Below are positions 1 to 39,782 of a DNA stretch of 39,782 bases, piece after piece. The notes under the pieces were generated by a model. It was given only the letters and a program-made list of their open reading frames with translations. It was not told the origin of the DNA and made no database searches. Source of the DNA: a plasmid; the sequence record NZ_CP071287.1; one strand, 5' to 3'. How positions within the stretch are numbered: the first letter of the stretch is position 1; every line of letters starts with the position of its first letter. Both the position numbers and the translations under genes were made by a program.

Positions 1-51
1 TACTTTTTCACTCGTTAAAAAGTTTTGAGAATATTTTATATTTTTGTTCAT
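1..51 (-). CDS. ermB: erm(B) 23S rRNA adenine N6-methyltransferase, first 17 codons (MNKNIKYSQNFLTSEKV); the gene wraps around the window joint from 39782
   Basis: Reverse complement of 1..51 translates to the canonical ErmB N-terminus and is in frame with 39096..39782 (…[14 protein letters not shown]…). The ATG on the minus strand is at 49..51. Confidence 0.9.
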   Translation of the reverse strand, partial: MNKNIKYSQNFLTSEKV

Positions 52-175
52 GTAATCACTCCTGAAGTGATTACATCTATAAATAAATACAGAAGTTAAA
101 CGATTTGTTTGTAATTTTAGTTATCTGTTTAAAAAGTCATAAGATTAGTCACTGGTAGGAATTAATCTAACGTAT

Positions 176-259
176 TTATTTATCTACGTAATCACTGTTT
201 TTAGTCTGTTTCAAAACAGTAGATGTTTTATCTACATTACGCATTTGGAATACCAACAT
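176..259 (-). CDS. ermBL: erm(B) leader peptide (MLVFQMRNVDKTSTVLKQTKNSDYVDK), translational attenuation leader
   Basis: 27-codon ORF behind GGAGG, located upstream of erm(B). It matches the known Erm(B) leader peptide. Confidence 0.85.
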   Translation of the reverse strand: MLVFQMRNVDKTSTVLKQTKNSDYVDK

Positions 260-307
260 GACGAATCCCTCCTTCTTAATTACAAATTTTTAGCATCTAA
301 TTTAACT

Positions 308-547
308 TCAATTCCTATTATACAAAATTTTAAGATACTGCACTATCAACACACTCTTAAGTTTGCTTCTAAGTCTTATTTCCATAACTTCTTTTACGTT
401 TCCGCCATTCTTTGCTGTTTCGATTTTTATGATATGGTGCAAGTCAGCACGAACACGAACCGTCTTATCTCCCATTATATCTTTTTTTGCACTGATTGGT
501 GTATCATTTCGTTTTTCTTTTTGTGCGCCTAAATTTCCCACAATCAC
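308..547 (-). CDS. omega-like repressor variant (omega'): residues 1-55 are near-identical to the Inc18 omega at 37360..37575, but the C-terminal 24 aa are unrelated (…EIRLRSKLKSVLIVQYLKILYNRN)
   Basis: Direct comparison with the omega copy in this window. The DNA is identical from about 395 to the heptad repeats and divergent below 395. Confidence 0.75.
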   Translation of the reverse strand: MIVGNLGAQKEKRNDTPISAKKDIMGDKTVRVRADLHHIIKIETAKNGGNVKEVMEIRLRSKLKSVLIVQYLKILYNRN

Positions 548-585
548 TCACTTCTTTCTATTTCTTCTTATTCTTATTTTATCAT

Positions 586-633
586 CAACAATCACAAATC
601 ACTTGTGATTTGTGATAAGTGATTTGTGATTAA
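586..633. promoter_or_regulatory. array of heptad repeats (A/T)ATCAC(A/T), the omega operator type, in direct and inverted orientation
   Basis: aatcacaaatcacttgtgatttgtgataagtgatttgtgatt. The same arrays occur upstream of omega (37616..37667) and delta (38567..38630). Confidence 0.8.
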
Positions 634-638
634 TATAT

Positions 639-662
639 AAAAGCCCTCTTTAAAGGGCTTTT
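639..662. terminator. palindromic rho-independent terminator aaaagccctctttaaagggctttt downstream of topB
   Basis: Perfect 9-bp stem with A and T tracts on either side. Duplicated at 38638..38661. Confidence 0.7.
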
Positions 663-666
663 ATGT

Positions 667-2811
667 TTATTTTGAGAAAGATATAAAATCAATATATCCC
701 TTTTCCCCAATTTTTACAACGGCATTGTAGGGCTTTTTCTCTTTGTTTTTGATTCCTTTTACCAGGGTTTCTTTTCCCTCCAGTAATTCTTTTACATTCG
801 TTTTGGTTAGTTTTTTCTTTCTAAAATGTTCAGCTAAAGTAAACTTACATTCAGGATAATTTGAACAACCATAAAACGATTTTTTTAATACAATATTGTT
901 GCCACACTTAGGACATTTTCCTACAATACTTTTTTCTGCTTCTTTTTCTTTCTGTTCCTGGTAATCAGAAAAATTTAGTTTTTCTATATCGTTAGGTACA
1001 GCTTCCAGTAAATGAACAATGAATTTTTTGATATTCGTAATAAAGTTCTCTTGATTGCCTTCTCTTTTACCGATTTTTTTTAAATACGTTTCCCATTTAG
1101 CCGTCATTTCAGCACTCGTTAAAAGGTGCTGACTTTCAACTGCCTGGCACAATAATTTTCCTTTTTCAGTTACAACAAGCTTATTCTTAATCACTTGGAT
1201 ATATTCTTTTTGTTTTAACGCTTCAATAATACTTGCTCTTGTCGCTTCTGTTCCAATCCCCTCAACTTCTTGTAAAATCTTGATTGCTTCTTCATCATCA
1301 ACCGTTTTATTCGCCGTTTTCATAGCAGTTAATAATGTACCCTCTGTAAAAGCTTTTGGCGGTTGCGTTTCTTTTTCAACACTCTTAACACCAACTTCGG
1401 CACGTTCGCCAATGATAACGAGTGGTAACGTTTGAACGTCCTCTTTTTCTTCTTTGGTTTGTTGTTTGAAAAGAATTTTCCACCCTTCTTGCTTTGGTGT
1501 CTTTCCGATCGATTGAAACAGCAAATCAGCTACTTTCGTTTGTATCTTGGTTTCTTCATACAAGTAATCAGGTAAAAACATGGCAACGGTCGTTTTAACG
1601 ACTAAAGCATATATTTTTCGTTGTAAATCGTCCATTTTCGCTAATACAGATTCGTTAGGTACTTGTTTTGTTGGGATAATGGCGTGGTGTTCCTGTACCT
1701 TACTACCGTCCACATAACGCTTTCTAGGCTCTGTTTGAACCATTTCAAGATCAAGTCCTAAAAAACCGCTATATTTGCCAAAATTCGCTTTTAAATAAGC
1801 AAATTCGTTCTCTGTAATAAATGGTGTATCTGTTCTTGGATAACTCAATAATTTTGCTTCATACAGTCCTTGCATAGCTTTTAAAGTTTGGCTCGCTGTC
1901 GCTTTATAAAGCTGATTGACTTTTGATTGCAAACTACTTAAAGAAAACAAACTCGGACTATTCGTTTTCTTCTCTTTGGTTTGAACATCAGCAATTATCC
2001 CCTCTTGATTGCCTATTTTAGCTTGTTTAGAAGAAACAAAAGCTAAAAGCTCCTCTTGGGTTTTAAAACGCTGTGTGGGGCTTAGAACGCCCTTAAACGA
2101 CCCTTGGTTTACTTTTATACTAGCTTCCACCTCGAAAAAAGGTTCTTTTTTAAAATTCTCTATGGCTTCCTGGCGCTGAAAAATAAGGTATAAGGTGGGC
2201 GTTTGAACACGTCCTAGTGAAAATGTACCTTGTACGCCCTTCTGTTGTAAATTTAACGTATACAAAGGGCTTGCGTTCATGCCGATCAACCAATCGGCAA
2301 TTTGGCGTGTTTGCGCTTCTTGATAAAAGGGATAGTAATTCATTCCAGGTTGCAAATTTTGAAAACCGCTTCGGATTACATCTTTTTCTAAGCTATTGAT
2401 CCATAGTCTTTTAAATGTTTTATCTTTTGAAAAGGCATTTGCTTTATGGATAATCGACCAGGCGATATTTTCACCTTCTCTGTCGCTATCTGTTGCAACA
2501 ATAATTGTATTTGCCTTTTTGAGAAGTTCTGCAACAATTTTAAACTGCTTTCCCTTATCTTTTGCAACTTCAAAATCGTATCGATCAGGAAAAATCGGCA
2601 AAGATTCAAGTTTCCAATTTTGCCACTTTTCGTCATAATGACCTGGTTCTGCTAATTCCACTAAATGCCCAAAACCAAAGGTGATAAACGTTTCATCTGT
2701 AAATAGTGGGTCTTTGATCTCAAAATAACCGTCTTTTTTGGTGCTTTGTTTTAAAGCACTTGCGTAGGCTAATGCCTGGCTTGGTTTTTCAGCTAAAATA
2801 ACCGTACTCAT
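667..2811 (-). CDS. topB: DNA topoisomerase III (714 aa) with C-terminal zinc-ribbon motifs (CPKCG…C…C); Inc18-type topB
   Basis: Toprim/Topo IA signature over the full length (MSTVILAEKPSQA…). Its 3' end is duplicated at 38663..38925. Confidence 0.9.
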   Translation of the reverse strand: MSTVILAEKPSQALAYASALKQSTKKDGYFEIKDPLFTDETFITFGFGHLVELAEPGHYDEKWQNWKLESLPIFPDRYDFEVAKDKGKQFKIVAELLKKANTIIVATDSDREGENIAWSIIHKANAFSKDKTFKRLWINSLEKDVIRSGFQNLQPGMNYYPFYQEAQTRQIADWLIGMNASPLYTLNLQQKGVQGTFSLGRVQTPTLYLIFQRQEAIENFKKEPFFEVEASIKVNQGSFKGVLSPTQRFKTQEELLAFVSSKQAKIGNQEGIIADVQTKEKKTNSPSLFSLSSLQSKVNQLYKATASQTLKAMQGLYEAKLLSYPRTDTPFITENEFAYLKANFGKYSGFLGLDLEMVQTEPRKRYVDGSKVQEHHAIIPTKQVPNESVLAKMDDLQRKIYALVVKTTVAMFLPDYLYEETKIQTKVADLLFQSIGKTPKQEGWKILFKQQTKEEKEDVQTLPLVIIGERAEVGVKSVEKETQPPKAFTEGTLLTAMKTANKTVDDEEAIKILQEVEGIGTEATRASIIEALKQKEYIQVIKNKLVVTEKGKLLCQAVESQHLLTSAEMTAKWETYLKKIGKREGNQENFITNIKKFIVHLLEAVPNDIEKLNFSDYQEQKEKEAEKSIVGKCPKCGNNIVLKKSFYGCSNYPECKFTLAEHFRKKKLTKTNVKELLEGKETLVKGIKNKEKKPYNAVVKIGEKGYIDFISFSK

Positions 2812-3287
2812 TAACTATCCCTCTTTTCATTGTTTTTTCTTTGATCGACTGTCACGTTATATCTTGCTCGATACCTTCTAAACGTTCGGCGATTGATTCC
2901 AGTTTGTTCTTCAACTTCTTTATCGGATAAACCATTCAAAAACAAATCGAAAGCATGCTTTAAACGTGGATCATTTTCTTTAAATTTATGCTGACGACCT
3001 TTGAATTTGCCTTTTTTCTTAGCAATTTCGATTCCTTGTGCCTGACGTTCCTTAATTTTTTTTCGTTCTGATTCTGCTTGATACTTGTACAATTCAATGA
3101 CAAGGCTATTAATCAAACGCCTTAAATTTTCATCTTCAATACCATTCATTGAGGGTAAATTTAAGACTTCCAGGGTTGCCCCCTTAATTTGAATTTGATT
3201 CATCAATTCTGTTAATTCTTTATTATTTCGTCCTAATCGATCTAATTCAGTAACAATAACAATATCCCCTTCACGAATATAGTTAAG
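2811..3287 (-). pseudogene. serine resolvase (Inc18 beta-type), 5'-truncated: it lacks the catalytic Ser region (no M.IGYARVS..DQ) and the reading frame runs into the IS1216 terminal repeat
   Basis: The ORF starts inside the IS1216 IR at 3288. The retained part has the resolvase core (DRLGR) and a C-terminal HTH. Compare the intact resolvase at 15908..16465. Confidence 0.8.
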
Positions 3288-4096
3288 GGTTCTGTTGCAA
3301 AGTTTTAAATCTACTATCAAATAAGGTAGAATAATAGAAAAAGATAGCAGGAGGAATGACGATGAATCATTTTAAAGGAAAGCAATTTCAGCAGGATGTG
3401 ATTATTGTAGCCGTGGGCTACTATCTTCGTTATAACCTTAGCTATCGTGAAGTTCAAGAAATCTTATATGATCGTGGCATTAACGTTTCTCATACGACGA
3501 TTTATCGTTGGGTGCAAGAATATGGCAAACGACTCTATCAAATTTGGAAAAAGAAAAATAAAAAATCCTTTTATTCATGGAAAATGGATGAAACGTACAT
3601 CAAAATTAAAGGAAAATGGCATTATTTGTATCGAGCCATCGATGCAGATGGTTTAACCTTGGATATTTGGTTACGTAAAAAACGGGACACACAAGCAGCC
3701 TATGCTTTTCTTAAGCGGTTAGTGAAGCAGTTTGATGAACCGAAGGTTGTAGTCACAGATAAAGCACCATCAATTGCTAGTGCCTTTAAGAAACTAAAAG
3801 AATACGGCTTTTATCAAGGGACAGAACATCGTACCATTAAATACCTGAATAATTTGATTGAACAAGACCATCGTCCAGTAAAGAGACGCAATAAATTCTA
3901 TCGAAGTTTACGCACTGCCTCTACCACGATTAAAGGCATGGAAGCCATCCGAGGATTATATAAGAAAACCCGAAAAGAAGGCACTCTCTTCGGGTTTTCG
4001 GTCTGTACTGAAATCAAGGTATTATTGGGAATCCCAGCTTAAATCATAGATACCGTAAGGGATTTTATTCTTTATTTAAAACTTTGCAACAGAACC
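3288..4096 (+). mobile_element. IS1216 (IS6 family) copy 1, 809 bp, terminal IRs GGTTCTGTTGCAAAGTTTTAAA
   Basis: The IR is present at both ends. The transposase ORF is near-identical to copies 2 and 3. The 8-bp flanks differ (tagttaag / ttcttttt), so there is no target-site duplication. Confidence 0.9.
3356..4042 (+). CDS. tnp: IS6-family DDE transposase (IS1216); the likely start is the internal ATG at 3362 (MNHFKGKQ…) behind AGGAGG
   Basis: MNHFKGKQFQQDVIIVAVGYYLRYNLSYREV… is the typical IS26/IS1216 transposase. Confidence 0.9.
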   Translation: MTMNHFKGKQFQQDVIIVAVGYYLRYNLSYREVQEILYDRGINVSHTTIYRWVQEYGKRLYQIWKKKNKKSFYSWKMDETYIKIKGKWHYLYRAIDADGLTLDIWLRKKRDTQAAYAFLKRLVKQFDEPKVVVTDKAPSIASAFKKLKEYGFYQGTEHRTIKYLNNLIEQDHRPVKRRNKFYRSLRTASTTIKGMEAIRGLYKKTRKEGTLFGFSVCTEIKVLLGIPA

Positions 4097-4174
4097 TTCT
4101 TTTTTATACTTGCTATTGTGATACCTTCATTTTATCATAAGGAAGCTCTTTCAACTATTGATTTGACATTTATT

Positions 4175-5431
4175 TCATTGTCCTTCATTTTCTAACTTTC
4201 TTTGCAAATGTTTATCATAGTTCCGAACTGAGGGCGTACAATATAATAGAGCTGCAGCTAATATGCCTCCAAAGCCTGCAATCACAAGCATGTTTTGAAC
4301 ACCTATGGATTCCGCTACTGGAGCTGCGAAGATTAGCCCAACTGGTCCGGCAATACTCATCAATGCAGAGACTATTCCCATAACCCGTCCTAAGTATTGG
4401 GCTTCAAATGATTGCTGCGTGATTGCCATATTCATTGTGGTATAAATCTGTCCCACAATTCCAGCAAAAACATTCAAAACAAGGAAAACCCAAAACCCGT
4501 TCATATTGCCAGGAAGAAAGCCTGAACCACCGATGCTCAAGCCAATGATAAGATAAGCCGCAATAATCCAGGGCATACGGTCCTTAGTTTTTCCAAAAAT
4601 ACCAACAGCAAAAGAGCCAATCAGCATCGCAGCAGCAAATAGAACTTCAACCCAACCCGCGTGGACAATCGTGCCGCCAAAATATTTTGTGGTCACTAGA
4701 GGATAAAGACTCATTGCAGGCATAAAAAGTAACATAAATAGGGCACCGATGAGTGTCATTTTCCACATCGGTTTATTCTCACGGAGAATTTTAAACCCTT
4801 CAAGCGTATCCCTAATCACAGAGATCTTTTCGCCCTGTGAAGCGACTTCTGGTATCCTGACTAAAAGCAACATTCCAGCACCAAGAATGAAGCCAATCAC
4901 ATCAAGTAAAATAACCCAATGAATCGGCATAGTTGCTACCATGAAAGCTCCAATCCCAGGTGAAACAATAACTATCAAAGATTGAATAATACCGAACTGT
5001 CCGTTGACTCGAGTAATTTCGTCTTCTGGTACCATTGTGGGCATAATAGATTGGACTGTTGGCATCTGAGCGGTCTGTGCAACCGCACGAATACCAATAG
5101 TCACAAAGACCATCCAAAGTGGATAAACATCATTATTAATCCCGTAAATAAAAAGACCCAAGGCTATTACTGCCACCACAGCATCATATGAAATAAGTAA
5201 GAACTTCTTGTTGATACGGTCAATGAATGGCCCAACAAACGGGCTTAGAAGCGCCATTGGTAACATACCTACAAGTGTAGCAATTGCAAGGACAGATTCT
5301 TCACCTGTTTCAAGGGTCAAATACCAAATAATCGCATACTGGACAATCATTGAAGTCACGCCCGTTAGGAGCTGACCTATCAAAAACAAATAAAAATTTT
5401 TCCGCCAATTTGGCGGGACTGATGTGTTCAT
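4175..5431 (-). CDS. MFS efflux transporter, 418 aa, 12 predicted TM segments, Mef/DHA3-like; size and context are compatible with lactococcal Mdt(A)-type multidrug/macrolide efflux
   Basis: Hydrophobic 12-TM architecture and an N-terminal motif resembling the Mef(A) family. The Mdt(A) assignment rests on length and context only. Confidence 0.7.
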   Translation of the reverse strand: MNTSVPPNWRKNFYLFLIGQLLTGVTSMIVQYAIIWYLTLETGEESVLAIATLVGMLPMALLSPFVGPFIDRINKKFLLISYDAVVAVIALGLFIYGINNDVYPLWMVFVTIGIRAVAQTAQMPTVQSIMPTMVPEDEITRVNGQFGIIQSLIVIVSPGIGAFMVATMPIHWVILLDVIGFILGAGMLLLVRIPEVASQGEKISVIRDTLEGFKILRENKPMWKMTLIGALFMLLFMPAMSLYPLVTTKYFGGTIVHAGWVEVLFAAAMLIGSFAVGIFGKTKDRMPWIIAAYLIIGLSIGGSGFLPGNMNGFWVFLVLNVFAGIVGQIYTTMNMAITQQSFEAQYLGRVMGIVSALMSIAGPVGLIFAAPVAESIGVQNMLVIAGFGGILAAALLYCTPSVRNYDKHLQRKLENEGQ

Positions 5432-5527
5432 AGAGTTCCTTTTTCTATATTTTCTTTAAGGAGCCTAAAATTTTATCCGTAATCCAAACAGATATTCTTC
5501 TCCATTTTAAATATTAGCATATCAAAA

Positions 5528-5656
5528 ATGGAAAGTCAACGAAAAACTAGACACGGAGTTAAGAGAATTTATGGAAAGTCAACGAAAAACTAGACACGGA
5601 GTTAAGAGAATTTATGGAAAGTCAACGAAAAACTAGACACGGAGTTAAGAGAATTT
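5528..5656. repeat. perfect tandem triplication of a 43-bp unit (atggaaagtcaacgaaaaactagacacggagttaagagaattt), starting immediately after the IS3-family orfB stop
   Basis: Three identical units at 5528-5570, 5571-5613 and 5614-5656. The unit is an inverted copy of the subterminal sequence at the other IS end (6826..6866). Confidence 0.9.
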
Positions 5657-6494
5657 AAGAATTATATTTTTCAAAGTCTTTTGGAGACTTGTAATCAAGA
5701 CCTGAATGCATCCTTTTTGTATTGTAATAGGTCTCAATGTATTTAAATATTTCTTGAGTAGCCTCAGCTCTTGTCTCAAAATGAGCATCATTAATAAGCT
5801 CCCTCTTTAGCGTCTTATAAAAAGACTCCATCATTGCATTGTCATAGGGATTTCCTTTACGACTCATGCTAGATTGAGCACCGACTTGACGAAGAGTAGA
5901 TTGATAACGAGAGCTTGTATATTGACTCCCTTGATCAGTATGGACAATCAAGCCAGGCTGAGGATGTTCTTTCCCACAAGCTTGTAAGAAGCAATCCCTC
6001 ACCAGTTTATCTTGCATCCGTGAAGACATTGACCAGCCTACAATCTTACGTGAAAAAACGTCGATATTCACGGCTAAGTATAAGGTGCCTTCTTTGGTAG
6101 GGATATAGGTCATGTCTCCCAGCCATACTTTATTAGGAGCTGTTGCTTTAAAGATCTGATTAATTAAATTGGGTCTTGAAAGCGAAGCTCCTTTTCTGTT
6201 GTAATGTTTATATCTATAACGGCTTCCCTTGGCATAAAGTCCCATCAAGTGCATCAGTTTTCCAACACGTTTCGTGTTGGTCATAATACCAGTATTATGA
6301 AGTACCTTGGTAATTCTGACCGCACCATAGCGTCCCTTATGCTCATGAAAGACAGCTTTTATCTTCTCTGAGAGAATTTCTCTCTCCACTTGTTGTTTTG
6401 AAGGACGACGATGCATGTATTCATAGAAACCTGAGCGAGAAACCTTAAGAACTTTTACTGCATGCTTAATTTTTATCTTCCCATGATGTTTCAA
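5655..6494 (-). CDS. IS3-family transposase OrfB (DDE/integrase core), expressed as an OrfAB fusion by a -1 frameshift
   Basis: …WLGDMTYIPTKEGTLYLAVNIDVFSRKIVGW…, the rve domain signature. Confidence 0.85.
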   Translation of the reverse strand: MKHHGKIKIKHAVKVLKVSRSGFYEYMHRRPSKQQVEREILSEKIKAVFHEHKGRYGAVRITKVLHNTGIMTNTKRVGKLMHLMGLYAKGSRYRYKHYNRKGASLSRPNLINQIFKATAPNKVWLGDMTYIPTKEGTLYLAVNIDVFSRKIVGWSMSSRMQDKLVRDCFLQACGKEHPQPGLIVHTDQGSQYTSSRYQSTLRQVGAQSSMSRKGNPYDNAMMESFYKTLKRELINDAHFETRAEATQEIFKYIETYYNTKRMHSGLDYKSPKDFEKYNS

Positions 6495-6511
6495 GAGAAA
6501 TTCAAAACGTT

Positions 6512-6802
6512 TTACTTGCTTCGCTTCAAGAAGACCCGGAACTTTTTTAGAAGTTCAAGTTCCTCCTGAAGATAACGATTTTCTTTCTCTAACAATTTAA
6601 TCTTATGTTGGGCATTAGCTAGGGCTGTCCCATTGCCTGGAAAAGCACTTTCTCCATATTCTTCAACTTCTTGAACCCAGCGATAAAGACTATTGGCATG
6701 AACCTCAAGCTCTTGGCTGACTTCTTTAACAGAGTAACCCTCTTCAAGAATGAGTTTTACTGCAGAATTTTTAAATTGTTTATCGAATTTTCTTCTTGCC
6801 AT
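6512..6802 (-). CDS. IS3-family OrfA (HTH and leucine zipper); the likely start is MARRKFDKQ… at 6802
   Basis: HTH (SVKEVSQELEVHANSLYRW) and a heptad-leucine C-terminus. The slippery heptamer A AAA AAG is at 6542..6548 (minus strand). Translation after a -1 shift reads …LKHHGKIKIKHAVKVLK, which joins orfB. Confidence 0.8.
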   Translation of the reverse strand: MARRKFDKQFKNSAVKLILEEGYSVKEVSQELEVHANSLYRWVQEVEEYGESAFPGNGTALANAQHKIKLLEKENRYLQEELELLKKFRVFLKRSK

Positions 6803-6900
6803 AATAAACCTTTCCACGATTTCTCTTAACTTTGTGTCTAGTTTATTATAACCTTTCCATATTTCTGCTTGGATAAAAAGTCTAACTTTTGGGGTGCACA

Positions 6901-7014
6901 TCACTCTTCGGCTTTTCGGTCTCTACTGAAATCAAAATCTTAATGGGAATATCAGCCTAAGATAATTGAAATTCAGAGAGGTTGTATTTTATTTTAAAAC
7001 TTCGCAACAGAACC
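6901..7014 (+). mobile_element. 3' remnant (about 114 bp) of an ISS1/IS1216-like IS6 element: the transposase C-terminus (…LFGFSVSTEIKILMGISA*) plus the right IR. It was truncated by the IS3-family insertion.
   Basis: Aligns with 18521..18628 of the ISS1-like copy, including the terminal aaacttcgcaacagaacc. Confidence 0.8.
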
Positions 7015-7082
7015 TTATAAATTAAGTATAACAAAAATGAGCACATTATGCTCATTTTCGCTTACTATTTTTTTTGCTATTT

Positions 7083-9125
7083 TTATCTGCTCAAACCGCC
7101 TGATTTATTCTGTTCACGGTGTTTTCTTTCCATGTCCCATTCAACTTCTTCTAACCCTTTTTTACGTTGGTTTTCATTATTATATAAAACACTAATTAAA
7201 ACTCCACTAAATAAACGATTCATATATTCTGCTGGGCTTGTATCTGCATAGGTAACTGATTGGTAGTTTTCCATATTTTTATCTCTATAAAATTCATTTT
7301 TATAGGACTGTTTATCATTCCTGTTTGTTGCTTCTTTTAGCAATTCAGGATCAATATTTTTATCTGCTTTAGCTTCTCCAATAAAGAGTTTTTTTGTTCC
7401 CTCAAATTTCAAAACTCTTGTCAGATGTTTATTATTTATATCCTCTAATCTTATTCTTCCAGCAAGATAAGAAAGTCCTTGATTATGTTCTTTTGTAGAA
7501 AATAGAATTGGCGGTTCTTTAACAATATTTTCTAATTCACTTTGAGTAAGTTTTTTGATTTTTGGGTTGAAATAGATTACTGCATTATATGTTTTTTCTT
7601 TTTCAACTAAACTTAGTTTATTTAATTCACTATCAGGGAAAATTGTTCCAAGAACAACAGAATATTGTTGTTCTACAATTTTTCTTACTTCTTCAATAGA
7701 ATTAATTTGTTTAAGACTACGTTGAATAATATCGAGTTCTTTTGAAAATTCTTCTGATTCATAATTTCTTAAAATTTTACCATGTGACATTGCAATATGT
7801 TCATAGTTATATCCTTGATAAGCTAAAACATTATTGATGTTATCAATATGATATTTTTCTTGTTTTGAAAGCATAGTTAAACTTGTAAATGGTCGCTTAG
7901 TTAAAGCAACTATTTGCCTATTTAAACTATCTGCTCTAATCATTGATAATCTATCGTCTAATTCTGCACCAGTAAATACTTTATTTTCACTCTCTGTTTC
8001 TCTGATTAATTGACGCTTTTCAGGCATAGAAAAAGCATTGCTATCTACGGTCGGATACATAGCTTTTATACTTCTATCTACAACTTTATCAATCAAACGA
8101 TTTGCATTATCAAGTGAAAATTCTTGTTGACTGACTTTGTTTAATTCTTCTGAAACATCTTTACCAACAATTTGCTTAATTAAAACACTATTTTTCCAGT
8201 TGAAAAGCATTTTATTTTTTTCTTCAAGGTGTTCTAAATCAATAAAGGTATGCAACTCTTTACTCAATTCAGCAATAACTTTCTTTTCGTTGAAAGAATA
8301 GAAATTTTTTAGTTGCTTAACTTTAAGTTCATTATTGATTTTTTCGTCAAGGCTTTCTAGTTCTGCTTTATGTTGTCTATTTTCTAAAACAAGTTCATTA
8401 AATTCAGCACGTTCATCACGATTTCCAGTCACTCCTACGTGTTGTGTTGCAATATCATTTATACCTTGTGCTTCTAGTGTTTTTTCACTAATTCTTTCAT
8501 CAATCTTTTTTTCTTGAAAAACAGAATTAACATGTTCTGCCCATGCTTTTCTCCATTCTTCAACTTTACCTACTTTATCCCAGTCAACAAGCCAAATTTT
8601 TCTACTTCTAGCATGACCATTAGCTGTATAAGTTTTGTTTCCATTTTCATCTAAAATATATTCTTTTTTAGCTTTTTGTCCCCAGCTTCCATCAGCATTA
8701 AACGGTCTATTTGTAAGCATAACATGAGCATGAGGGTTTTCATCATGATCTCTATGAATTGCAACATCTGCAACCATACCTTTATCAACAAATATTTTTT
8801 GAACATATTCGGTCAATAGTTCTTTTTGTTCATCTTCTGATAATTCAATAGGCAAAGCAACGTTAAATTCTTTTGCGTATCTTGAATTTACTTTACGGTC
8901 AATTGCTTCAACTTCGTTCCATAATTTTTGTCTATCTTTAGCCCATTCAGGTGCATTTTCAGGTAAAAGGATAAAACTTTCAGGCATGACACTACGATCA
9001 TAAAAATAAGTTTTATTTTCCATTTCGCTATAAAGTTTTTCGCCACTTCTATAACTTGCACTAGCTACTGCACTTCTTCCCTTACCAGCACTAATATTAC
9101 TAAAATTCATGTGAAATATTGCCAT
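7083..9125 (-). CDS. mobA: MobA/MobL-family (MOBQ) relaxase, 680 aa
   Basis: N-terminal catalytic Tyr motif (SAVASASYRSGE) and histidine triad (HRDHDENPHAHVML). Confidence 0.9.
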   Translation of the reverse strand: MAIFHMNFSNISAGKGRSAVASASYRSGEKLYSEMENKTYFYDRSVMPESFILLPENAPEWAKDRQKLWNEVEAIDRKVNSRYAKEFNVALPIELSEDEQKELLTEYVQKIFVDKGMVADVAIHRDHDENPHAHVMLTNRPFNADGSWGQKAKKEYILDENGNKTYTANGHARSRKIWLVDWDKVGKVEEWRKAWAEHVNSVFQEKKIDERISEKTLEAQGINDIATQHVGVTGNRDERAEFNELVLENRQHKAELESLDEKINNELKVKQLKNFYSFNEKKVIAELSKELHTFIDLEHLEEKNKMLFNWKNSVLIKQIVGKDVSEELNKVSQQEFSLDNANRLIDKVVDRSIKAMYPTVDSNAFSMPEKRQLIRETESENKVFTGAELDDRLSMIRADSLNRQIVALTKRPFTSLTMLSKQEKYHIDNINNVLAYQGYNYEHIAMSHGKILRNYESEEFSKELDIIQRSLKQINSIEEVRKIVEQQYSVVLGTIFPDSELNKLSLVEKEKTYNAVIYFNPKIKKLTQSELENIVKEPPILFSTKEHNQGLSYLAGRIRLEDINNKHLTRVLKFEGTKKLFIGEAKADKNIDPELLKEATNRNDKQSYKNEFYRDKNMENYQSVTYADTSPAEYMNRLFSGVLISVLYNNENQRKKGLEEVEWDMERKHREQNKSGGLSR

Positions 9126-9149
9126 ATCTTAGTTTCTCCTTTCCCTTGT

Positions 9150-9245: not shown

Positions 9246-9319
9246 TTCGCTCGGTCTGCTGACGCTTCTAAATCTTAATTCCATTTTACTATTTTTTTTG
9301 GTTTTTAGCAACTAATCTG

Positions 9320-30557: not shown

Positions 30558-30599
30558 ATTTTCCTCCTAAATGAATGCTTTGAAATTTCTATCTATATA

Positions 30600-30619: not shown

Positions 30620-30664
30620 TCAAAGTCAAGGGAAAAGAATGAGTTACGAAGAATAAAAAAATAG

Positions 30665-31473: not shown

Positions 31474-31680
31474 CACTAGACTTATTTACTACGTTTCATA
31501 AGTCATTAATGCGTGTGCTCTGCGAGGCTAGTTTTTGTGCAAGCACAAAAAATGGACTGAATAAATCAGTCCATAAGTTCAAAACCAAATTCAAAATCAA
31601 AACACCAGCAACCAAAAATGGTAGTTGCTATAAACTTATAAATATCATAATTACTTAAGTTTATGAAAGTTATTTTAGAT

Positions 31681-32328: not shown

Positions 32329-32336
32329 ATATAATT

Positions 32337-32398
32337 TTCCTCCTAAATTTCATCTTATCTCTTTGTATTTAGGAGGAATAATCCTCTGATTTTTTCAT
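32337..32398 (-). promoter_or_regulatory. cat translational attenuator: 9-codon leader ORF MKKSEDYSS (32369..32398), and the inverted repeat ttcctcctaaa/tttaggaggaa that sequesters the cat RBS
   Basis: The cat RBS AGGAGG (complement of 32339..32344) pairs with the leader coding region 32369..32378. Confidence 0.8.
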
Positions 32399-32462
32399 AT
32401 ATTGTGTCACCTCTTAAACGTTAATTATACTAAAGTAACATTTTGTATAAAACAAAGTTACT

Positions 32463-32747
32463 TTACTTCCAAAATCTAAATTCACGTTGCCAAAAATCAA
32501 TCTGCTTTTGCAATTGTTTTTCGTTCGCTTTTAAAGTCGATTTCATTAAATCAGTTAAATCAATTAGAGATATTTCTTTAATTAATTTTTTATATTTATT
32601 CTTAGTACGTCTTTCTAATTTTCCCCATTCTTCTTCATCATTCAACAACATAAAAACCATTGCTCTATCAGAAGTACGTTCGATAGTTTTCCAATCTGGT
32701 TGTAATATATGTAAATCATTAAAACAATCGTTCCAATAATCAACCAT
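32463..32747 (-). CDS. hypothetical 94-aa protein upstream of cat, with a weak RBS; possibly a remnant of the original cat-plasmid backbone
   Basis: ORF only. No recognisable motifs. Confidence 0.35.
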
Positions 32748-32897
32748 ATCTCTTTTTAATTCAATTTTTATTTTTATTATTTTTAATCTCTTTAAATATC
32801 TTTACGCACGTATATAGACTTCATAATTTTAAAATTATATAGACTTCACAACACAATATTTCGGTACAACTTCCATGTAAAGTATAACACACTAGAC

Positions 32898-33706
32898 GGT
32901 TCTGTTGCAAAGTTTTAAATCTACTATCAAATAAGGTAGAATAATAGAAAAAGATAGCAGGAGGAATGACGATGAATCATTTTAAAGGAAAGCAATTTCA
33001 GCAGGATGTGATTATTGTAGCCGTGGGCTACTATCTTCGTTATAACCTTAGCTATCGTGAAGTTCAAGAAATCTTATATGATCGTGGCATTAACGTTTCT
33101 CATACGACGATTTATCGTTGGGTGCAAGAATATGGCAAACTACTCTATCAAATTTGGAAAAAGAAAAATAAAAAATCCTTTTATTCATGGAAAATGGATG
33201 AAACGTACATCAAAATTAAAGGAAAATGGCATTATTTGTATCGAGCCATCGATGCAGATGGTTTAACCTTGGATATTTGGTTACGTAAAAAACGGGACAC
33301 ACAAGCAGCCTATGCTTTTCTTAAGCGGTTAGTGAAGCAGTTTGATGAACCGAAGGTTGTAGTCACAGATAAAGCCCCCTCTATTACAAGTGCCTTTAAG
33401 AAACTAAAAGAATACGGCTTTTATCAAGGGACAGAACATCGTACCATTAAATACCTGAATAATTTGATTGAACAAGACCATCGTCCAGTAAAGAGACGCA
33501 ATAAATTCTATCGAAGTTTACGCACTGCCTCACCCACGATTAAAGGTATGGAAGCCATCCGAGGATTATATAAGAAAACCCGAAAAGAAGGCACTCTCTT
33601 CGGGTTTTCGGTCTGTACTGAAATCAAGGTATTATTGGGAATCCCAGCTTAAATCATAGATACCGTAAGGGATTTTATTCTTTATTTAAAACTTTGCAAC
33701 AGAACC
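32898..33706 (+). mobile_element. IS1216 copy 3, 809 bp
   Basis: Terminal IRs are present. The 8 bp immediately to the left (32890..32897) is CACTAGAC, identical to the right flank of copy 2. Confidence 0.9.
32966..33652 (+). CDS. tnp: IS1216 transposase
   Basis: Near-identical to 3356..4042. Confidence 0.9.
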   Translation: MTMNHFKGKQFQQDVIIVAVGYYLRYNLSYREVQEILYDRGINVSHTTIYRWVQEYGKLLYQIWKKKNKKSFYSWKMDETYIKIKGKWHYLYRAIDADGLTLDIWLRKKRDTQAAYAFLKRLVKQFDEPKVVVTDKAPSITSAFKKLKEYGFYQGTEHRTIKYLNNLIEQDHRPVKRRNKFYRSLRTASPTIKGMEAIRGLYKKTRKEGTLFGFSVCTEIKVLLGIPA

Positions 33707-34582
33707 GATTGGTCTTATTATCCACAAGAACCATCCGCTAACGATAGCGAAAATAGGAATGCTTATCTTCACGAATTAGGGAAAATTACTAATAGGAGTA
33801 GATTTGTCGATGGTTTAAATGTTGATGCTCCTTATACTACAACTGCTCACTATTGGTTAATTAAACAAATGGTTAATGCCGACGAATGGCGAATGATTAG
33901 TGATGATGACTTCTCTATTAGAAACGCCTTTTATAGAGTATTCACGAAAGAATTAAGGTTGAGCGATGCACATCATTTTATTTGCCAAGTTAACAAGACG
34001 AAAAGCAGAAAACAATGCTTAAAAGAATTCGGACAAGCAAAAGCAGAACTGCTCGATTGGGGAGATATCAGAGGATTCAAAACAAAGTTTCTACGGACTT
34101 TGGCATCTCATTATCTAACTGAATTACTAACAAGTCATCAATTCCACGAAGAGGCTATTAGTAAAGATGGAGAAAGATATCGCAAATATGCCGATAACCC
34201 TATCAAACATCCATTAGCCACTAAGGATAAAGGATTTTATTCAGTTGATTGTAGAACGGATTTATCTGCTCTGGAACCAAACGAAATCGCAAAGATGCTA
34301 TTAAATGTTAATGACCATTCGACCAATAGCTTTATTCAACAGATAAGACGTTATATATCATCTCTTGAAAGACCATTAACAACAGCTCGTGGTGATAAGA
34401 AGAGCTATATTTACGCTAACTTCAATCCGAAGTATGCTCAATTTGCGATTACAATTCTAAGAACTTACTACAACTTTTGTCGCCCTTTTAAATCAGCGGA
34501 TAAAAAGGTTTTGACACCTGCTCAAAGATTAGGGATTACAGATAAACAATTTGATTGGAAAGATATAATTTATTTCAAATGA
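33707..34582 (+). pseudogene. hypothetical protein, 5'-truncated by IS1216. The reading frame is open from the first base after the IS right IR (DWSYYPQEPSAND…), so the listed ATG at 33869 is internal.
   Basis: The in-frame extension 33707..33868 has no stop. At least 291 codons remain. No assignable domain. Confidence 0.55.
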
Positions 34583-34585
34583 CAA

Positions 34586-34613
34586 AAAGAGCTTGGAGTA
34601 ATCCCAAGCTCTT
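34586..34613. terminator. bidirectional terminator agagcttgg-N6-ccaagctct between the convergent genes
   Basis: 9-bp stem. Confidence 0.6.
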
Positions 34614-34653
34614 GTGCTTTATCTTTACTGTTCTTCTTCAATTAACGCACCCG

Positions 34654-35151
34654 TTAACTCAATAAGTTTTTTCTTTCATATACATGAAAATAGTAGTTAT
34701 ACGGATTTTTATCATTCTTTATCCCTTTTTGGGCAAATACCTCATTCCATTCCTCATAATTCACTTCTGGAAAAAAAGTATCTCCTTCGAATTCATGATG
34801 TATTTTTGTGATGTACATTTTCTCAACATAAGGGAAAAACAAATTATAAATCTGTTCTCCTCCGAAAATAAAAATTTCTTCTTCGTTTTTACATAACTCA
34901 AAAACATCTTCTATTGAATGAACAATTTCACAACCATTAAAGGTAAACCCCTTATCTCTCGTCAGAATAATATTTCTTCTGTCAGGTAAGGCTCTTCCGA
35001 TTGATTCAAGGTTCTTCCTACCTAATATTATCGGATGTCCCTTTGTAGTATTTTTAACATATTCCCAGTCCTTGGGAATCCTCCAAGGAATGTCATTCTC
35101 TTTGCCAATCACTCTATTCTTATCCATCGCAGCAATCAAAGAAACTTTCAT
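34654..35151 (-). CDS. dfrG: trimethoprim-resistant dihydrofolate reductase DfrG, 165 aa
   Basis: DHFR fold motifs (…LIAAMDKNRVIGKENDIPWR…). Length and sequence match DfrG. Confidence 0.85.
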   Translation of the reverse strand: MKVSLIAAMDKNRVIGKENDIPWRIPKDWEYVKNTTKGHPIILGRKNLESIGRALPDRRNIILTRDKGFTFNGCEIVHSIEDVFELCKNEEEIFIFGGEQIYNLFFPYVEKMYITKIHHEFEGDTFFPEVNYEEWNEVFAQKGIKNDKNPYNYYFHVYERKNLLS

Positions 35152-35447
35152 TTATAACACAGCCTTTTTAACTAATTTACCATCTAATTTCTTATTTCTA
35201 TCAAAAAACCTTTTCTCATTATCCTGCCCGTTAGTTGAATAAGCAATTTTTTCTATAAGTTATATTATCATAATACCACAAAATCACAAATTTTCATTCA
35301 ATTATCATTTTCAATTGCATTTTATAAATCATTTTGTATGTAATTTGGTATGTAAGTTAAAATGAAAAAAGTAGTCCATTTTGAAGTACATTTTGTCATT
35401 TTGTACTCCAAAACTGAACTACTTACTTTTTTTGCTAGGCTTTTTTT

Positions 35448-35813
35448 TTACATTTCTTTAATTTTCAAATTTTTTATTTCCCACTCAAACCATTCGCTAA
35501 AATCTTGTTTAAAGCCGTTAATAGAATATTGCTCTTGTTCTTCTGCTTCTTTATCGTTTTGAGGGTCTAAGTAGGTCGGTTTATCTTTTGGTCTTGCGTA
35601 TACACCTATCCATGTTTTAAAATCGCCCTCAAAACTGCTATCTATGATAAAGCCTTGCTCTTTTAGCTCTTCTCTTACTTGAGCTTTTAGATATTGCTGT
35701 TCTTGTGTTCCATAAAACCCATTTTCTGTAAAATCTTCTAATTGTAATTTTTTTGTTTTTTCCATTTTCTTTTCCTCTTTTCTTTTTTTGATTTTTAGTT
35801 TTTTGACAACCAT
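35448..35813 (-). CDS. hypothetical acidic, Trp-rich protein, paralogue B; the likely start is the second Met (MEKTKKLQLEDF…, about 35765), giving 105 aa
   Basis: Homologous over the full length to 10283..10600 (…QYLKAQVREELKEQGFIIDSSFE…WIGVYARPKDKPTYLDPQ…QYSINGFKQDFSEWFEWEIKN). Confidence 0.7.
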   Translation of the reverse strand: MVVKKLKIKKRKEEKKMEKTKKLQLEDFTENGFYGTQEQQYLKAQVREELKEQGFIIDSSFEGDFKTWIGVYARPKDKPTYLDPQNDKEAEEQEQYSINGFKQDFSEWFEWEIKNLKIKEM

Positions 35814-36030
35814 TTTTGTTAGGCGTTTGAGGAAGTGAAGCTGTTTTCCTCATGTTTTAAAAGCTAGAAATAAATTACAGTGTACGCTCCTTTCTTTTTT
35901 CGTTTTGTTGGTTCATTTTCGCCAGTGTGTTCGTGTCGTTTGCTGTGACGAGAACGCAACATAGACACAAAGAAAACACAAGGGCGAGCTTGCTCGTTTA
36001 TATACCCTTGTGTTTTCGACTGGATATGTT
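35814..36030 (-). promoter_or_regulatory. conserved structured leader of paralogue B: hairpin 35972..36017 (13-bp stem, 20-nt loop), 13-codon uORF 35875..35916 (MNQQNEKRKERTL) and a GAAGTGAAG box
   Basis: See the leader of paralogue A. The stem covaries, the loop core is conserved, and the uORF is conserved in position. Confidence 0.6.
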
Positions 36031-36151
36031 AAGGTAACAAACAGTAAATGGCACGTTACAGACTGCAAAATGTACCAACTGAAAAAAGAAAGAATACAGT
36101 TGTGTGCTTTATTTCTCGATCAGCTTTTAAAAAATGAGGAAATGTTTTTAT

Positions 36152-36200
36152 AAAAAAAGAGTAGTTACCGTTTTTTGGTAACTACTCTTTTACTTTTTTA
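36152..36200. terminator. bidirectional terminator agagtagttacc-gtttttt-ggtaactactct with a T-run, downstream of the zeta gene
   Basis: 12-bp perfect stem. Confidence 0.75.
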
Positions 36201-36204
36201 AGGT

Positions 36205-37068
36205 TTAAATCCCTGGAAGTTTAGGTGTTTTGGGTATTGGTGGTGTAGGTGGCTGCAAGCTTTCCATTTTTTGTTGAATTGCTTTAAATTCAGGGGTTTC
36301 TTGGTGTTGATTTTGAACCATTTTTTGCTCTATTCTCTCCAAAGTCGGTTGAATTTCTTTCCCTGATACTTTACGATTTAATTCTCTTTCTAAGGTCTCT
36401 TTCGGACTAATGGAAGGCGTTTCTAAGCTTGAATAGAGTTTCACTCCTTCTCTATTGTAAAGCCTTATATCGCTAAATAAGCCCGTTTTATGAAGGGTTT
36501 CTAAATTGGTCGGTAAGTTTTTGACAACAATATCATGCGCTTGTTTTGGTGTTGCCCTGGCTGTCATTGGATCATCTGCATACATAGTTTCATACCGTTC
36601 AATTGTTCCTAAATATGAGTTGATTTTAGGTACTGCCATGACATACATTTTTGTTTCATAATCTTTGGCTTGAAGCATTGTTGCGGTTTGAATAGGAACG
36701 TCTGTTGTTCGTCCTGTACCTTCAATCACTAAATTATACCCTTTATCTCTCAAACGGCTTATGATCGCTTCTGTCATGCGATTAGAATAAGGGGTAACGT
36801 ATTTTACTACGTCTTTTTCATAAAGTTTCACTAGTTCATCAAAATTAGGGTGCTGTTGTTTGAACGTATCATTATCAATGATAACAACATTTCCTTGTGT
36901 CTCTTCGGAAATTGCCGATCGCAAACTAGTTTTACCTGATCCTGGTTGCCCACCAAGTAAAAAAGCGGTTGGCGATTCAACCGCTAGTCTATTTTTAGTT
37001 AGTCGTTCAACATTCTTTTCTAAACGATCTTCAAATTGCTTTTCGGTGAAGTCAGTAATATTCGCCAT
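36205..37068 (-). CDS. zeta: zeta toxin (UNAG kinase) of the omega-epsilon-zeta system, 287 aa
   Basis: Walker A motif GGQPGSGKT. Full-length match to Inc18 zeta. Confidence 0.95.
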
Positions 37069-37069
37069 G

Positions 37070-37342
37070 TTAAGCCACTTTCTCTTTTGTCAAAATTTGT
37101 TTTGAATATTGATTCATTGACCGCCAATACTCATGAATAGCTTGTAATTCTTCAAATGGTTGTTGAAATAAATCAACTTCTTGTGCCACTTCTAATTGAT
37201 TTAAAAGATTCACTTCTAGTAAACGAGTATTTTTAGTATCTAGTTCATGGTTCAAAACATAGTTTAATACTCGATTATAAACGCTTGCCGATAATTCGTT
37301 AATGATCTCTATTTCAAATGTTTTTTCATACGTAACTGCCAT
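37070..37342 (-). CDS. epsilon: epsilon antitoxin, 90 aa
   Basis: [35 protein letters not shown]…. Confidence 0.95.
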
Positions 37343-37359
37343 TTCATTTTCACTCCTTT

Positions 37360-37575
37360 TTAAAGTTTATCAGGTAAATATTTCCGTATATATTCTTCTA
37401 AGGCTTGATCCATAACTTCTTTTACGTTTCCGCCATTTTTTGCTGTTTCAATTTTTATAATATGGTGTAAGTCAGCACGAACACGAACCGTCTTATCTCC
37501 CATTATATCTTTTTTTGCACTGATTGGTGTATCATTTCGTTTTGCTTTTTGTGCGCCTAAATTTCCCACAATCAC
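37360..37575 (-). CDS. omega: omega global repressor (RHH), 71 aa
   Basis: MIVGNLGAQKAKRNDTPISAKKDIMGDKTVRVRADLHHIIKIETAKNGGNVKEVMDQALEEYIRKYLPDKL. Confidence 0.95.
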   Translation of the reverse strand: MIVGNLGAQKAKRNDTPISAKKDIMGDKTVRVRADLHHIIKIETAKNGGNVKEVMDQALEEYIRKYLPDKL

Positions 37576-37615
37576 TCACTTCTTTCTATTTCTTCTTATT
37601 CTTATTTTATCATCA

Positions 37616-37667
37616 ACAATCACAAATCACAAGTGATTTGTGATTAATCACTTGTGATTTGTGATTC
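37616..37667. promoter_or_regulatory. heptad WATCACW repeats (omega operator, P-omega)
   Basis: caatcacaaatcacaagtgatttgtgattaatcacttgtgatttgtgatt. Confidence 0.85.
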
Positions 37668-38563
37668 TATTCTTTTTCGTTTTCTAATTGAATAATTCGC
37701 TCAAGCATTTCAAAAAATACGTTCTCATACATGGATAAAACTTTTTTGTCATAGCCTTTGTGTTCTGTAATTCCATTTTTAGACCAGGTACTTACTTTAT
37801 TACTTCGCTTGATAATATTTTGGAAAACCAAGTTATCTTCTTTATGTTGCTTGTACAGTTCTTCCAGGTTTGATTTTATCGTTGCGCTGTCCGTATCAAC
37901 TAAATAAGGAACAAAACCGATCATATCTAGTCCAGGGTTAAATTGTTCTTGTAAATCAATCAAATAGGAAATATAGTTTTGAATGTTGTTTGTACTTTCT
38001 TCTTCTGCTTGTAAAGGGATCATAACGTAATCACTCGCCACGATTGCATTATTTGTATAAACGCTTGGCGTTGGTACAGTATCAATAATAATGAGATCAT
38101 AGTCACTTTTTAAAGGTGCTAAAAGAGTAGCAAGCAATCTACTTTCATTTTCAAAAGTCCATGAGCGAGTTAATTTTGGCAGTAACATCAAATCAAACGT
38201 GCCAGGGATCAAGTCTAAATTATCAGTCAAATGAACAATAGAAGAAGCCAAGTTTCCATTTTTCAAGCCTTCATAAAAATTGACACGTGGCAATTCTACC
38301 TCAAAAGTTTTTGCTAAGTCTTTTGTCAATGTTGCCTGTAAGTCCTTATCGATCATTAAAACTTTTAAATTCAATTTGTCTGTCAAGTAAGCAAACATAG
38401 TCGATAATTTGGACTTTCCAACACCACCTTTAAAGTAATTATTCAAGATAATAATTGCTTCATTTTTATTGTTTAAAATACGTCTTAATTCTTCAAGTAT
38501 TTTTAGTTTTTCCTTCTCCATAACTACGCCCCATTCTTTTTTTGTATAGTAATATTGTATCAT
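37667..38563 (-). CDS. delta: delta, the Inc18 ParA-type partition ATPase, 298 aa
   Basis: Walker A motif KGGVGKS. Full-length similarity to Inc18 delta. Confidence 0.9.
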   Translation of the reverse strand: MIQYYYTKKEWGVVMEKEKLKILEELRRILNNKNEAIIILNNYFKGGVGKSKLSTMFAYLTDKLNLKVLMIDKDLQATLTKDLAKTFEVELPRVNFYEGLKNGNLASSIVHLTDNLDLIPGTFDLMLLPKLTRSWTFENESRLLATLLAPLKSDYDLIIIDTVPTPSVYTNNAIVASDYVMIPLQAEEESTNNIQNYISYLIDLQEQFNPGLDMIGFVPYLVDTDSATIKSNLEELYKQHKEDNLVFQNIIKRSNKVSTWSKNGITEHKGYDKKVLSMYENVFFEMLERIIQLENEKE

Positions 38564-38566
38564 TAA

Positions 38567-38630
38567 GAATCACAAATCACAAGTGATTTGTGATTAATCA
38601 CTTGTGATTTGTGATAAGTGATTTGTGATT
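38567..38630. promoter_or_regulatory. heptad repeats upstream of delta (P-delta operator)
   Basis: gaatcacaaatcacaagtgatttgtgattaatcacttgtgatttgtgataagtgatttgtgatt. Confidence 0.85.
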
Positions 38631-38662
38631 AATATATAAAAGCCCTCTTTAAAGGGCTTTTA

Positions 38663-38925
38663 TATTTATTTTGAAAAAGAGATAAAATCAATATATCCCT
38701 TTTCCCCAATTTTTACAACGGCATTGTAGGGCTTTTTCTCTTTGTTTTTGATTCCTTTTACCAGGGTTTCTTTTCCCTCCAGTAATTCTTTTACATTCGT
38801 TTTGGTTAGTTTTTTCTTTCTAAAATGTTCAGCTAAAGTAAACTTACATTCAGGATAATTTGAACAACCATAAAACGATTTTTTTAATACAATATTGTTG
38901 CCACACTTAGGACATTTTCCTACAA
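38663..38925 (-). pseudogene. duplicate of the topB 3' end (last about 87 codons, zinc-ribbon region); duplicates 667..about 928
   Basis: Near-identical to 667..928 together with the upstream terminator (38638..38661). It breaks abruptly at 38925/38926. Confidence 0.85.
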
Positions 38926-38995
38926 GGGGTCCCGAGCGCTTAGTGGGAATTTGTACCCCTTATCGATACAAATTCCCCGTAGGCGCTAGGGACCT
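38926..38995. mobile_element. Tn917/Tn3-family terminal inverted-repeat remnants (GGGGTCCCGAGCGC…), two back-to-back copies, at the junction between the topB fragment and erm(B)
   Basis: ggggtcccgagcgcttagtgggaatttgtacccc, and the reverse complement of ggtccctagcgcctacggggaatttgtatcgataa. Confidence 0.7.
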
Positions 38996-39095
38996 CTTTA
39001 GCTCCTTGGAAGCTGTCAGTAGTATACCTAATAATTTATCTCCATTCCCTTTAGTAACGTGTAACTTTCCAAATTTACAAAAGCGACTCATAGAA

Positions 39096-39782
39096 TTATT
39101 TCCTCCCGTTAAATAATAGATAACTATTAAAAATAGACAATACTTGCTCATAAGTAACGGTACTTAAATTGTTTACTTTGGCGTGTTTCATTGCTTGATG
39201 AAACTGATTTTTAGTAAACAGTTGACGATATTCTCGATTGACCCATTTTGAAACAAAGTACGTATATAGCTTCCAATATTTATCTGGAACATCTGTGGTA
39301 TGGCGGGTAAGTTTTATTAAGACACTGTTTACTTTTGGTTTAGGATGAAAGCATTCCGCTGGCAGCTTAAGCAATTGCTGAATCGAGACTTGAGTGTGCA
39401 AGAGCAACCCTAGTGTTCGGTGAATATCCAAGGTACGCTTGTAGAATCCTTCTTCAACAATCAGATAGATGTCAGACGCATGGCTTTCAAAAACCACTTT
39501 TTTAATAATTTGTGTGCTTAAATGGTAAGGAATATTCCCAACAATTTTATACCTCTGTTTGTTAGGGAATTGAAACTGTAGAATATCTTGGTGAATTAAA
39601 GTGACACGAATGTTCAGTTTTAATTTTTCTGACGATAAGTTGAATAGATGACTGTCTAATTCAATAGACGTTACCTGTTTACTTATTTTAGCCAGTTTCG
39701 TCGTTAAATGCCCTTTACCTGTTCCAATTTCGTAAACGGTATCGGTTTCTTTTAAATTCAATTGTTTTATTATTTGGTTGAG
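39096..39782 (-). CDS. ermB: erm(B) rRNA adenine N6-methyltransferase, codons 18-245 (…[27 protein letters not shown]…LLFNGRK*); the N-terminus is at 1..51
   Basis: Full ErmB sequence. SAM-binding motif [10 protein letters not shown]. Confidence 0.95.

Follow-up and report, generated by a model that had tools for sequence, protein, structure and literature searches.

The sequence record NZ_CP071287.1 (39,782 bp) was taken in full as the window of this study, that is, the whole stretch of DNA analysed, and it contains the resistance gene erm(B) split across its two ends. The analysis indicates, with high confidence, that this window is the record of an entire circular plasmid, whose linear form begins at an arbitrary position within erm(B). 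The same reading had been put forward in an original prediction made from the sequence, and it is supported here by ends that are neighbours to the base, by the presence of a complete replicon, and by the observation that the window ends interrupt erm(B) and no other gene. Everything that a self-sufficient plasmid needs is encoded in the window, and its odd length is more in keeping with a complete record than with an excerpt.

Closure of the window ends within erm(B)

Translation of the right-end part of the gene (39782..39096, minus strand) resulted in 228 amino acids (aa) followed by a stop codon, in the same frame as the 17 codons encoded at the left end (MNKNIKYSQNFLTSEKV). Joining 51..1 to 39782..39096, which was the check suggested together with the claim that positions 39782 and 1 are contiguous, yielded a single 245-aa ErmB open reading frame (ORF) with neither a stop nor a frameshift at the joint. 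The joined protein matched the NCBIfam model NF012220 for Erm(B) along its entire length (565.9 bits, with a cut-off of 525; aligned 1-245/245), and the joined gene was identical in 738 of 738 nucleotides (nt) to erm(B) of pBN62-65kb (NZ_CP120418.1), a plasmid of Lactococcus sp. bn62 from pig lung, whose erm(B) is 100% identical to the AMRFinder reference. No terminal overlap of 8-3000 nt was found between the window ends, and thus the closure involves neither a gap nor redundancy.

The contiguity of the two ends was also observed in independent assemblies. A 400-mer straddling the 39782/1 joint was an exact substring of the independently assembled pBN62-65kb, and local BLAST placed window positions 39782 and 1 at the adjacent positions 40461 and 40460 of that plasmid, within a block collinear between both replicons. 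A 3-kb join (38283..39782 plus 1..1500) was recovered in one aligned piece in 191 plasmids of PLSDB (2024 release), counting single-piece alignments over at least 80% of its length. The best matches corresponded to pBN62-65kb (99.8%) and to a plasmid of Enterococcus faecalis D32 (99.7%), and pRE25 (99.1%) was among the others. In addition, ten independent genome contexts of ORF3, the ORF located downstream of erm(B), always contained an unbroken 245-aa ErmB, in the gene order topB, omega', ErmL, ErmB, ORF3, delta-omega-epsilon-zeta; the Tn917 genes tnpA and tnpR were present in none of these contexts. On these comparisons, chance is not a credible source of the end closure.

The ErmL leader, previously described as intact, was found as a 27-aa ORF at 259..176 (minus strand). 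By analogy with known attenuators, this arrangement would confer inducible macrolide-lincosamide-streptogramin B (MLSB) resistance through ribosome stalling on ErmL and attenuation of erm(B).

Lactococcal backbone, Inc18-derived block and accessory genes

The circle obtained by joining the ends divides into two arcs, a backbone (4097..~16530) and an accessory arc (~16530..39782 plus 1..4096), whose features are collected in Table 1. The backbone contains a complete replication module, formed by RepB, a countertranscript RNA (ctRNA) and iterons upstream of repB, with the characteristics of pND324/pCI305-type replicons (22-bp iterons, about 3.5 copies). Theta replicons of this type, such as that of pMRC01 (NC_001949.1), share with the window the L_lactis_RepB_C match, ctRNA_pND324 and 22-bp iterons, along with a parA-resolvase module 97-99% identical to that of the window. 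On the other hand, the traits usually found on dairy plasmids with such replicons are technological ones and not an enterococcal multi-resistance island.

Comparison with pK214 (NC_009751.1, Lactococcus lactis K214) revealed 99.7-100% identity over window positions 4097..14656, which include mdt(A), an IS3-family element, mobA, repB and the genes for the toprim-domain and SSB-like proteins; the replicon region was 99.7% identical, and RepB differed by one residue. An IS1216-bracketed cat module is also present in pK214. This plasmid carries tet(S), str, mobV and cat, and differs from the window in the absence of erm(B), dfrG, the lac operon and the Inc18 block, and in its parA allele. The parA-resolvase region (14500-16100) was close to neither pK214 nor pBN62-65kb. 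It was contiguous in 25 other plasmids, all of them from Lactococcus and including pMRC01, and therefore the backbone runs from 4097 to ~16530. These matches identify the backbone as wholly lactococcal and similar to that of pK214, with Lactococcus as the very probable host.

The relaxase domain of MobA is complete in the window, and residues 75-680 of the protein correspond to the pK214 protein. The mobA gene of pK214 encodes 610 aa and is devoid of ~71 N-terminal codons, since ~440 bp present here (8903-9353) are absent from pK214; the gene in the window may represent the ancestral, functional form. No oriT inverted repeat was found upstream of mobA with a 7-nt seed (8850-9450), a search that did not include comparison with an oriT consensus. 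The interval between mdt(A) and the IS3-family element contains three copies of a perfect 43-bp tandem repeat (5528-5657), vs two copies in pK214.

The Inc18-derived sequences located at the two window ends had been predicted to form one continuous block, and this was the case after joining, in the same order as in pRE25. Reading the minus strand across the joint, the block comprises beta', topB, six heptads, omega', ErmL, erm(B), ORF3, a 71-nt element with two inverted repeats (IR), a topB 3' fragment, nine heptads, delta, seven heptads, omega, epsilon and zeta. Measured between the zeta stop codon and IS1216-A (boundary 3287/3288), it is 6,863 bp long, or 6,389 bp by the coordinates of the original prediction, whose estimate of roughly 7 kb was a fair one. 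The omega', topB, zeta, epsilon, omega and delta genes that it had listed were all recovered at the positions given, as profile matches and ORFs, and the heptads were recovered by a motif scan.

It has to be noted, as a refinement to that prediction, that the block is cargo and that the plasmid is not an Inc18 replicon. The possibility that the block itself is the replicon was rejected because it contains no Inc18 rep gene: neither an Inc18-type rep gene (RepS/RepR/RepE) nor cop was found in the window, where all ORFs of at least 300 aa are otherwise accounted for (topB, mdt(A), mobA, repB, toprim, lacX/G/E/D/C and the ATPase) and the only initiator is of the Rep_3/L_lactis_RepB_C type. The delta-omega partition genes, the epsilon-zeta toxin-antitoxin genes and the heptad operators are present as cargo only, and judged by its gene content the block is cargo that would add resistance, partition and toxin-antitoxin functions. 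The order zeta-epsilon-omega-delta-erm(B)-ErmL-omega' is shared with pRE25 (NC_008445.1) and the Inc18 plasmids of the pIP501/pAMbeta1/pSM19035 group (99.1% over the 3-kb junction). These plasmids have their own rep/cop replication, and pRE25 is conjugative, whereas the window uses a lactococcal Rep_3/RepB system.

A scan for the omega-binding heptad WATCACW resulted in 58 matches in the window vs 29 ± 5.6 expected by chance. The arrays of nine and seven contiguous heptads are shared with the P-delta and P-omega operators of Inc18 plasmids, for which these counts are established. The first 56 residues of omega' are those of omega with one substitution, after which the tail diverges, and the omega' and omega regions belong to a 266-bp repeat (366-631 / 37395-37659, 94% identical). 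A 330-bp direct repeat (597-926 / 38596-38925, 99.1% identical) brackets erm(B). The six-heptad array at 590-631 is a hybrid, its left part aligning with P-omega through the 266-bp repeat and its right part with P-delta through the 330-bp repeat; this structure points to recombination within heptad arrays at the capture of erm(B).

Directly after the end of the 330-bp repeat, the published Tn917 IR terminus, GGGGTCCCGAGCGC (PMC12229494), was found at 38926-38939 as an exact match that occurs once in the window. The Tn917 IR reported in the original prediction thus stands for the first 14 nt, the portion that was compared out of the full 38 bp. An inverted copy with two mismatches lies 44 bp away (38983-38996), and the whole 38926-38996 segment is a near-perfect palindrome with a predicted hairpin of -44.3 kcal/mol. 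No ORF for a tnpA transposase or a tnpR resolvase was found in the window, which retains only this 71-nt double-IR remnant. This segment may be what is left of a Tn917-like element after its collapse, and it could also serve as a terminator. As a Tn917 reference pTEF1 was discarded, as it carries only an IS1216-flanked erm(B).

Annotation of the accessory arc was transferred from pBN62-65kb at 99.3% identity and checked with family models. A block of 27,959 bp (window 15921..39782 plus 1..4097) was collinear with positions 64320..36362 of that plasmid, at 99.3-99.7% identity and through the joint, and includes the resolvase gene, the ISS1-like element, the lac operon with lacR, the copper-type ATPase gene, IS1216-catA8-IS1216, dfrG, zeta-epsilon-omega-delta, erm(B), omega', topB and IS1216. 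In contrast, pBN62-65kb is a 65-kb plasmid with a different backbone, which has VirB4/VirD4-type conjugation genes, its own RepB and ParA and a different relaxase, and it lacks both mdt(A) and the pK214-like rep-mob region that are present in the window.

The three IS1216 copies are in direct orientation and are 98.5-98.9% identical. The 8-bp sequence CACTAGAC occurs on both inner flanks of IS1216-B and IS1216-C, around a 1,424-bp cat segment. In pK214 the arrangement is IS1216, CACTAGAC, str-mobV, CACTAGAC, cat, CACTAGAC, IS1216, and the cat segment of the window and pBN62-65kb looks like a deletion derivative in which str and mobV would have been lost by recombination between internal repeats. 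At 25.6%, the G+C content of this segment (31474-32897) is below that of the plasmid as a whole (33.5%) and that of the lac operon (37.2%), which fits a separate origin, probably from a small staphylococcal-type plasmid. Next to IS1216-C, a 237-aa ORF (33869-34582) gave no Pfam match and was identical at every residue (100%) to the C-terminal end of a 650-aa protein encoded beside dfrG in E. faecalis chromosomes. We also observed that a 105-aa ORF downstream of repB and another of the same length downstream of zeta share ~71% nucleotide identity over ~540 bp (10283-10829 and 35448-36011); they correspond to a conserved hypothetical gene with no family match, of which the lactococcal module and the Inc18 module each hold a copy.

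Table 1. Features of the 39,782-bp window, ordered by position (DHFR, dihydrofolate reductase; MFS, major facilitator superfamily)
Feature	Position	Strand	Basis or remark
erm(B) 5' part, codons 1-17	1..51	minus	translates to MNKNIKYSQNFLTSEKV, in frame with 39782..39096
ErmL/ErmBL attenuator leader peptide, 27 aa	176..259	minus	translation; ErmL annotated at the equivalent pBN62-65kb position, also in pRE25
omega', 79 aa; 3' end replaced by erm(B)-upstream sequence	308..547	minus	Pfam Omega_Repress, 1.3e-35
Six contiguous omega-binding heptads (WATCACW) before omega'	590..631		motif scan
topB (Inc18 gamma), type IA topoisomerase III, 714 aa	667..2811	minus	NF005829, 621 bits (cut-off 597)
beta', N-terminally truncated serine recombinase cut by IS1216-A	2811..3287	minus	profile positions 53-196 of 203 only
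IS1216 copy A (IS6 family), accessory/backbone boundary	3288..4096	plus	inverted repeat starts at 3288
mdt(A), multidrug efflux MFS transporter	4175..5431	minus	100% DNA identity to pK214 10351-11868; family match
IS3-family element, two overlapping transposase ORFs	5612..6904	minus	ORFs, pK214 comparison
mobA, MobQ-family relaxase, 680 aa	7083..9125	minus	NF041496, 244.7 bits (cut-off 200), 1-197/197
repB, theta-replication initiator, 384 aa	11078..12232	minus	Rep3_N, Rep3_C, L_lactis_RepB_C: 190.2, 126, 63 bits
ctRNA_pND324 countertranscript, antisense to repB leader	12230..12316	plus	RF00238, 77.8 bits (gathering score 45), full length
Origin iterons, 22 bp x 3.9	12336..12420		98% matches, score 163
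Toprim-domain protein and SSB-like protein	12914..14309	minus	pK214 annotation, family models
parA (265 aa) and small downstream ORF (88 aa), backbone partition module	14715..15792	minus	family model
Serine recombinase/resolvase	15908..16465	minus	annotation, family model
ISS1-like IS6-family element	17820..18628	plus	annotation, family model
lacXGEFDCBA, lactose/tagatose-6-phosphate operon	within 18636..27560	minus	transferred from pBN62-65kb, 99.3%
lacR	26793-27560	plus	transferred from pBN62-65kb, 99.3%
Copper-type heavy-metal P-type ATPase, 686 aa	28497..30557	minus	TIGR01511, 580.7 bits
IS1216-B	30665-31473	plus	annotation, family model
catA8	31681..32328	minus	annotation
IS1216-C	32898-33706	plus	annotation, family model
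3' remnant, 237 aa, of a 650-aa gene, truncated by IS1216-C	33869..34582	plus	sequence comparison
dfrG, trimethoprim-resistant DHFR	34654..35151	minus	NF000143, 391.9 bits (cut-off 365), 1-165/165
zeta toxin	36205..37068	minus	family models, pBN62-65kb annotation
epsilon antitoxin	37070..37342	minus	family models, pBN62-65kb annotation
omega	37360..37575	minus	family models, pBN62-65kb annotation
P-omega operator, seven contiguous heptads	37618..37666		motif scan
delta, ParA-type ATPase, 298 aa	37667..38563	minus	family model, pBN62-65kb annotation
P-delta operator, nine contiguous heptads	38568..38630		motif scan
Duplicated topB 3' fragment	38631..38925	minus	part of 330-bp direct repeat
Palindromic element, 71 nt, two Tn917-type IR termini back to back	38926..38996		overlaps 3' end of ORF3
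ORF3, downstream of erm(B)	38960..39091	minus	ORF
erm(B) 3' part, codons 18-245 and stop	39096..39782	minus	right end of window

Alternatives to a single circular plasmid

Several observations weigh against the interpretation of the window as one natural circle. The mosaic was searched for in PLSDB and in the GTDB representative genomes: in PLSDB no record reached 80% coverage of window positions 1-25000 or 3000-18000, and an exact-match scan of the contigs of the GTDB representative genomes with the junction between IS1216-A and the backbone gave 0 hits. When genomes encoding the identical Mdt(A) protein were inspected over 10 kb on each side, no assembly had mdt(A) beside IS1216; all contexts recovered had the glyoxalase gene downstream, and never IS1216-topB-erm(B). 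The whole circle is therefore without a confirming independent assembly, because the exact mosaic occurs in no collection searched. Furthermore, both arc boundaries are at repeats (IS1216 and a shared resolvase gene), where misassemblies also occur, and sequence alone can neither prove physical circularity nor exclude misassembly at such repeats. Regarding published descriptions, pERM1 (PMC8346141) proved to be another plasmid, no description of the present one is given in PMC12502582, and a literature search combining pK214, dfrG and Lactococcus returned nothing relevant.

One alternative is that co-resident pK214-like and pBN62-like plasmids were wrongly merged during assembly via IS1216 and the resolvase gene; the erm(B) joint would then be locally real, but there would be no 39.8-kb molecule. 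Such a chimera agrees with the clean split into a pK214-like and a pBN62-like arc, with boundaries at IS1216-A (3288-4096) and at a resolvase gene 97.7% identical between both plasmid types, and with the lack of the same mosaic in the collections searched. We nevertheless consider it very improbable. The parA-resolvase region (14500-16100) is contiguous, as one aligned piece, in other Lactococcus plasmids, and the resolvase-parA boundary was rejected as an assembly seam on the basis of its contiguity in the 25 plasmids mentioned above. The assembly also passes through three IS1216 copies that are 98.5-98.9% identical and through a 330-bp repeat, implying long reads or finishing; the accessory arc is without a rep gene of its own, so that a second backbone would be left over; and module exchange mediated by IS1216 and resolvase is part of the normal evolution of such plasmids.

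A second alternative, to which we assign a similarly slight probability, is that a larger replicon, or a tandem amplification, carries two direct copies of erm(B) cut at the same nucleotide, and that the window is a linear part of it or one of its units, so that the ends would only seem to close. Enterococcal plasmids annotated with two to three erm(B) copies are common. However, this explanation demands that the two cuts coincide to the base within a 738-bp gene, and no PLSDB record holds the window content between two erm(B) copies. The nearest relative, pBN62-65kb, has one erm(B), and the window contains a single complete replicon, with no further gene cut short at either end.

Origin and significance of the mosaic plasmid

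Considered as a single circular plasmid, the window would be maintained by functions that can be predicted from known families. Theta replication would start from the RepB/iteron origin with a copy number set by the ctRNA, stabilisation would be provided by ParA, by the Inc18 delta/omega partition system and by the epsilon/zeta toxin-antitoxin pair, and mobilisation would take place through the MobQ relaxase.

By the comparisons presented here, all modules are already known and are 98-100% identical to those of published plasmids, the erm(B) context being that of pRE25. The exact combination was found in no collection searched, yet it is an ordinary mosaic. Its origin would most likely involve IS1216 activity at 4096/4097 together with recombination in or beside the resolvase gene that is 97.7% shared between the pK214 and pBN62 types. 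We regard it as probable, with less confidence than for the closure of the circle, that the plasmid is an uncatalogued natural recombinant in which a 28-kb island left a pBN62-type plasmid, itself conjugative, for a mobilisable dairy-type pK214 backbone already carrying mdt(A), by way of an IS1216 junction and of recombination at the resolvase common to both types. This island combines enterococcal resistance genes (erm(B), dfrG, catA8 and the Inc18 stability genes) with lactose fermentation and a copper-type ATPase. Under such a scenario, lactose selection in milk would co-select the five-gene resistance set in food lactococci.

The main value of these results is a correct annotation of the record, as its linear treatment hides an intact erm(B) and splits the Inc18 block into two apparent fragments. 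Read as a circle, lactose use, a copper-type ATPase and a set of five resistance determinants, made up of erm(B), dfrG, catA8, mdt(A) and the stability genes that maintain them, are brought together on one mobilisable lactococcal replicon, a linkage that is not new in kind and that is relevant to the spread of resistance through the food chain.

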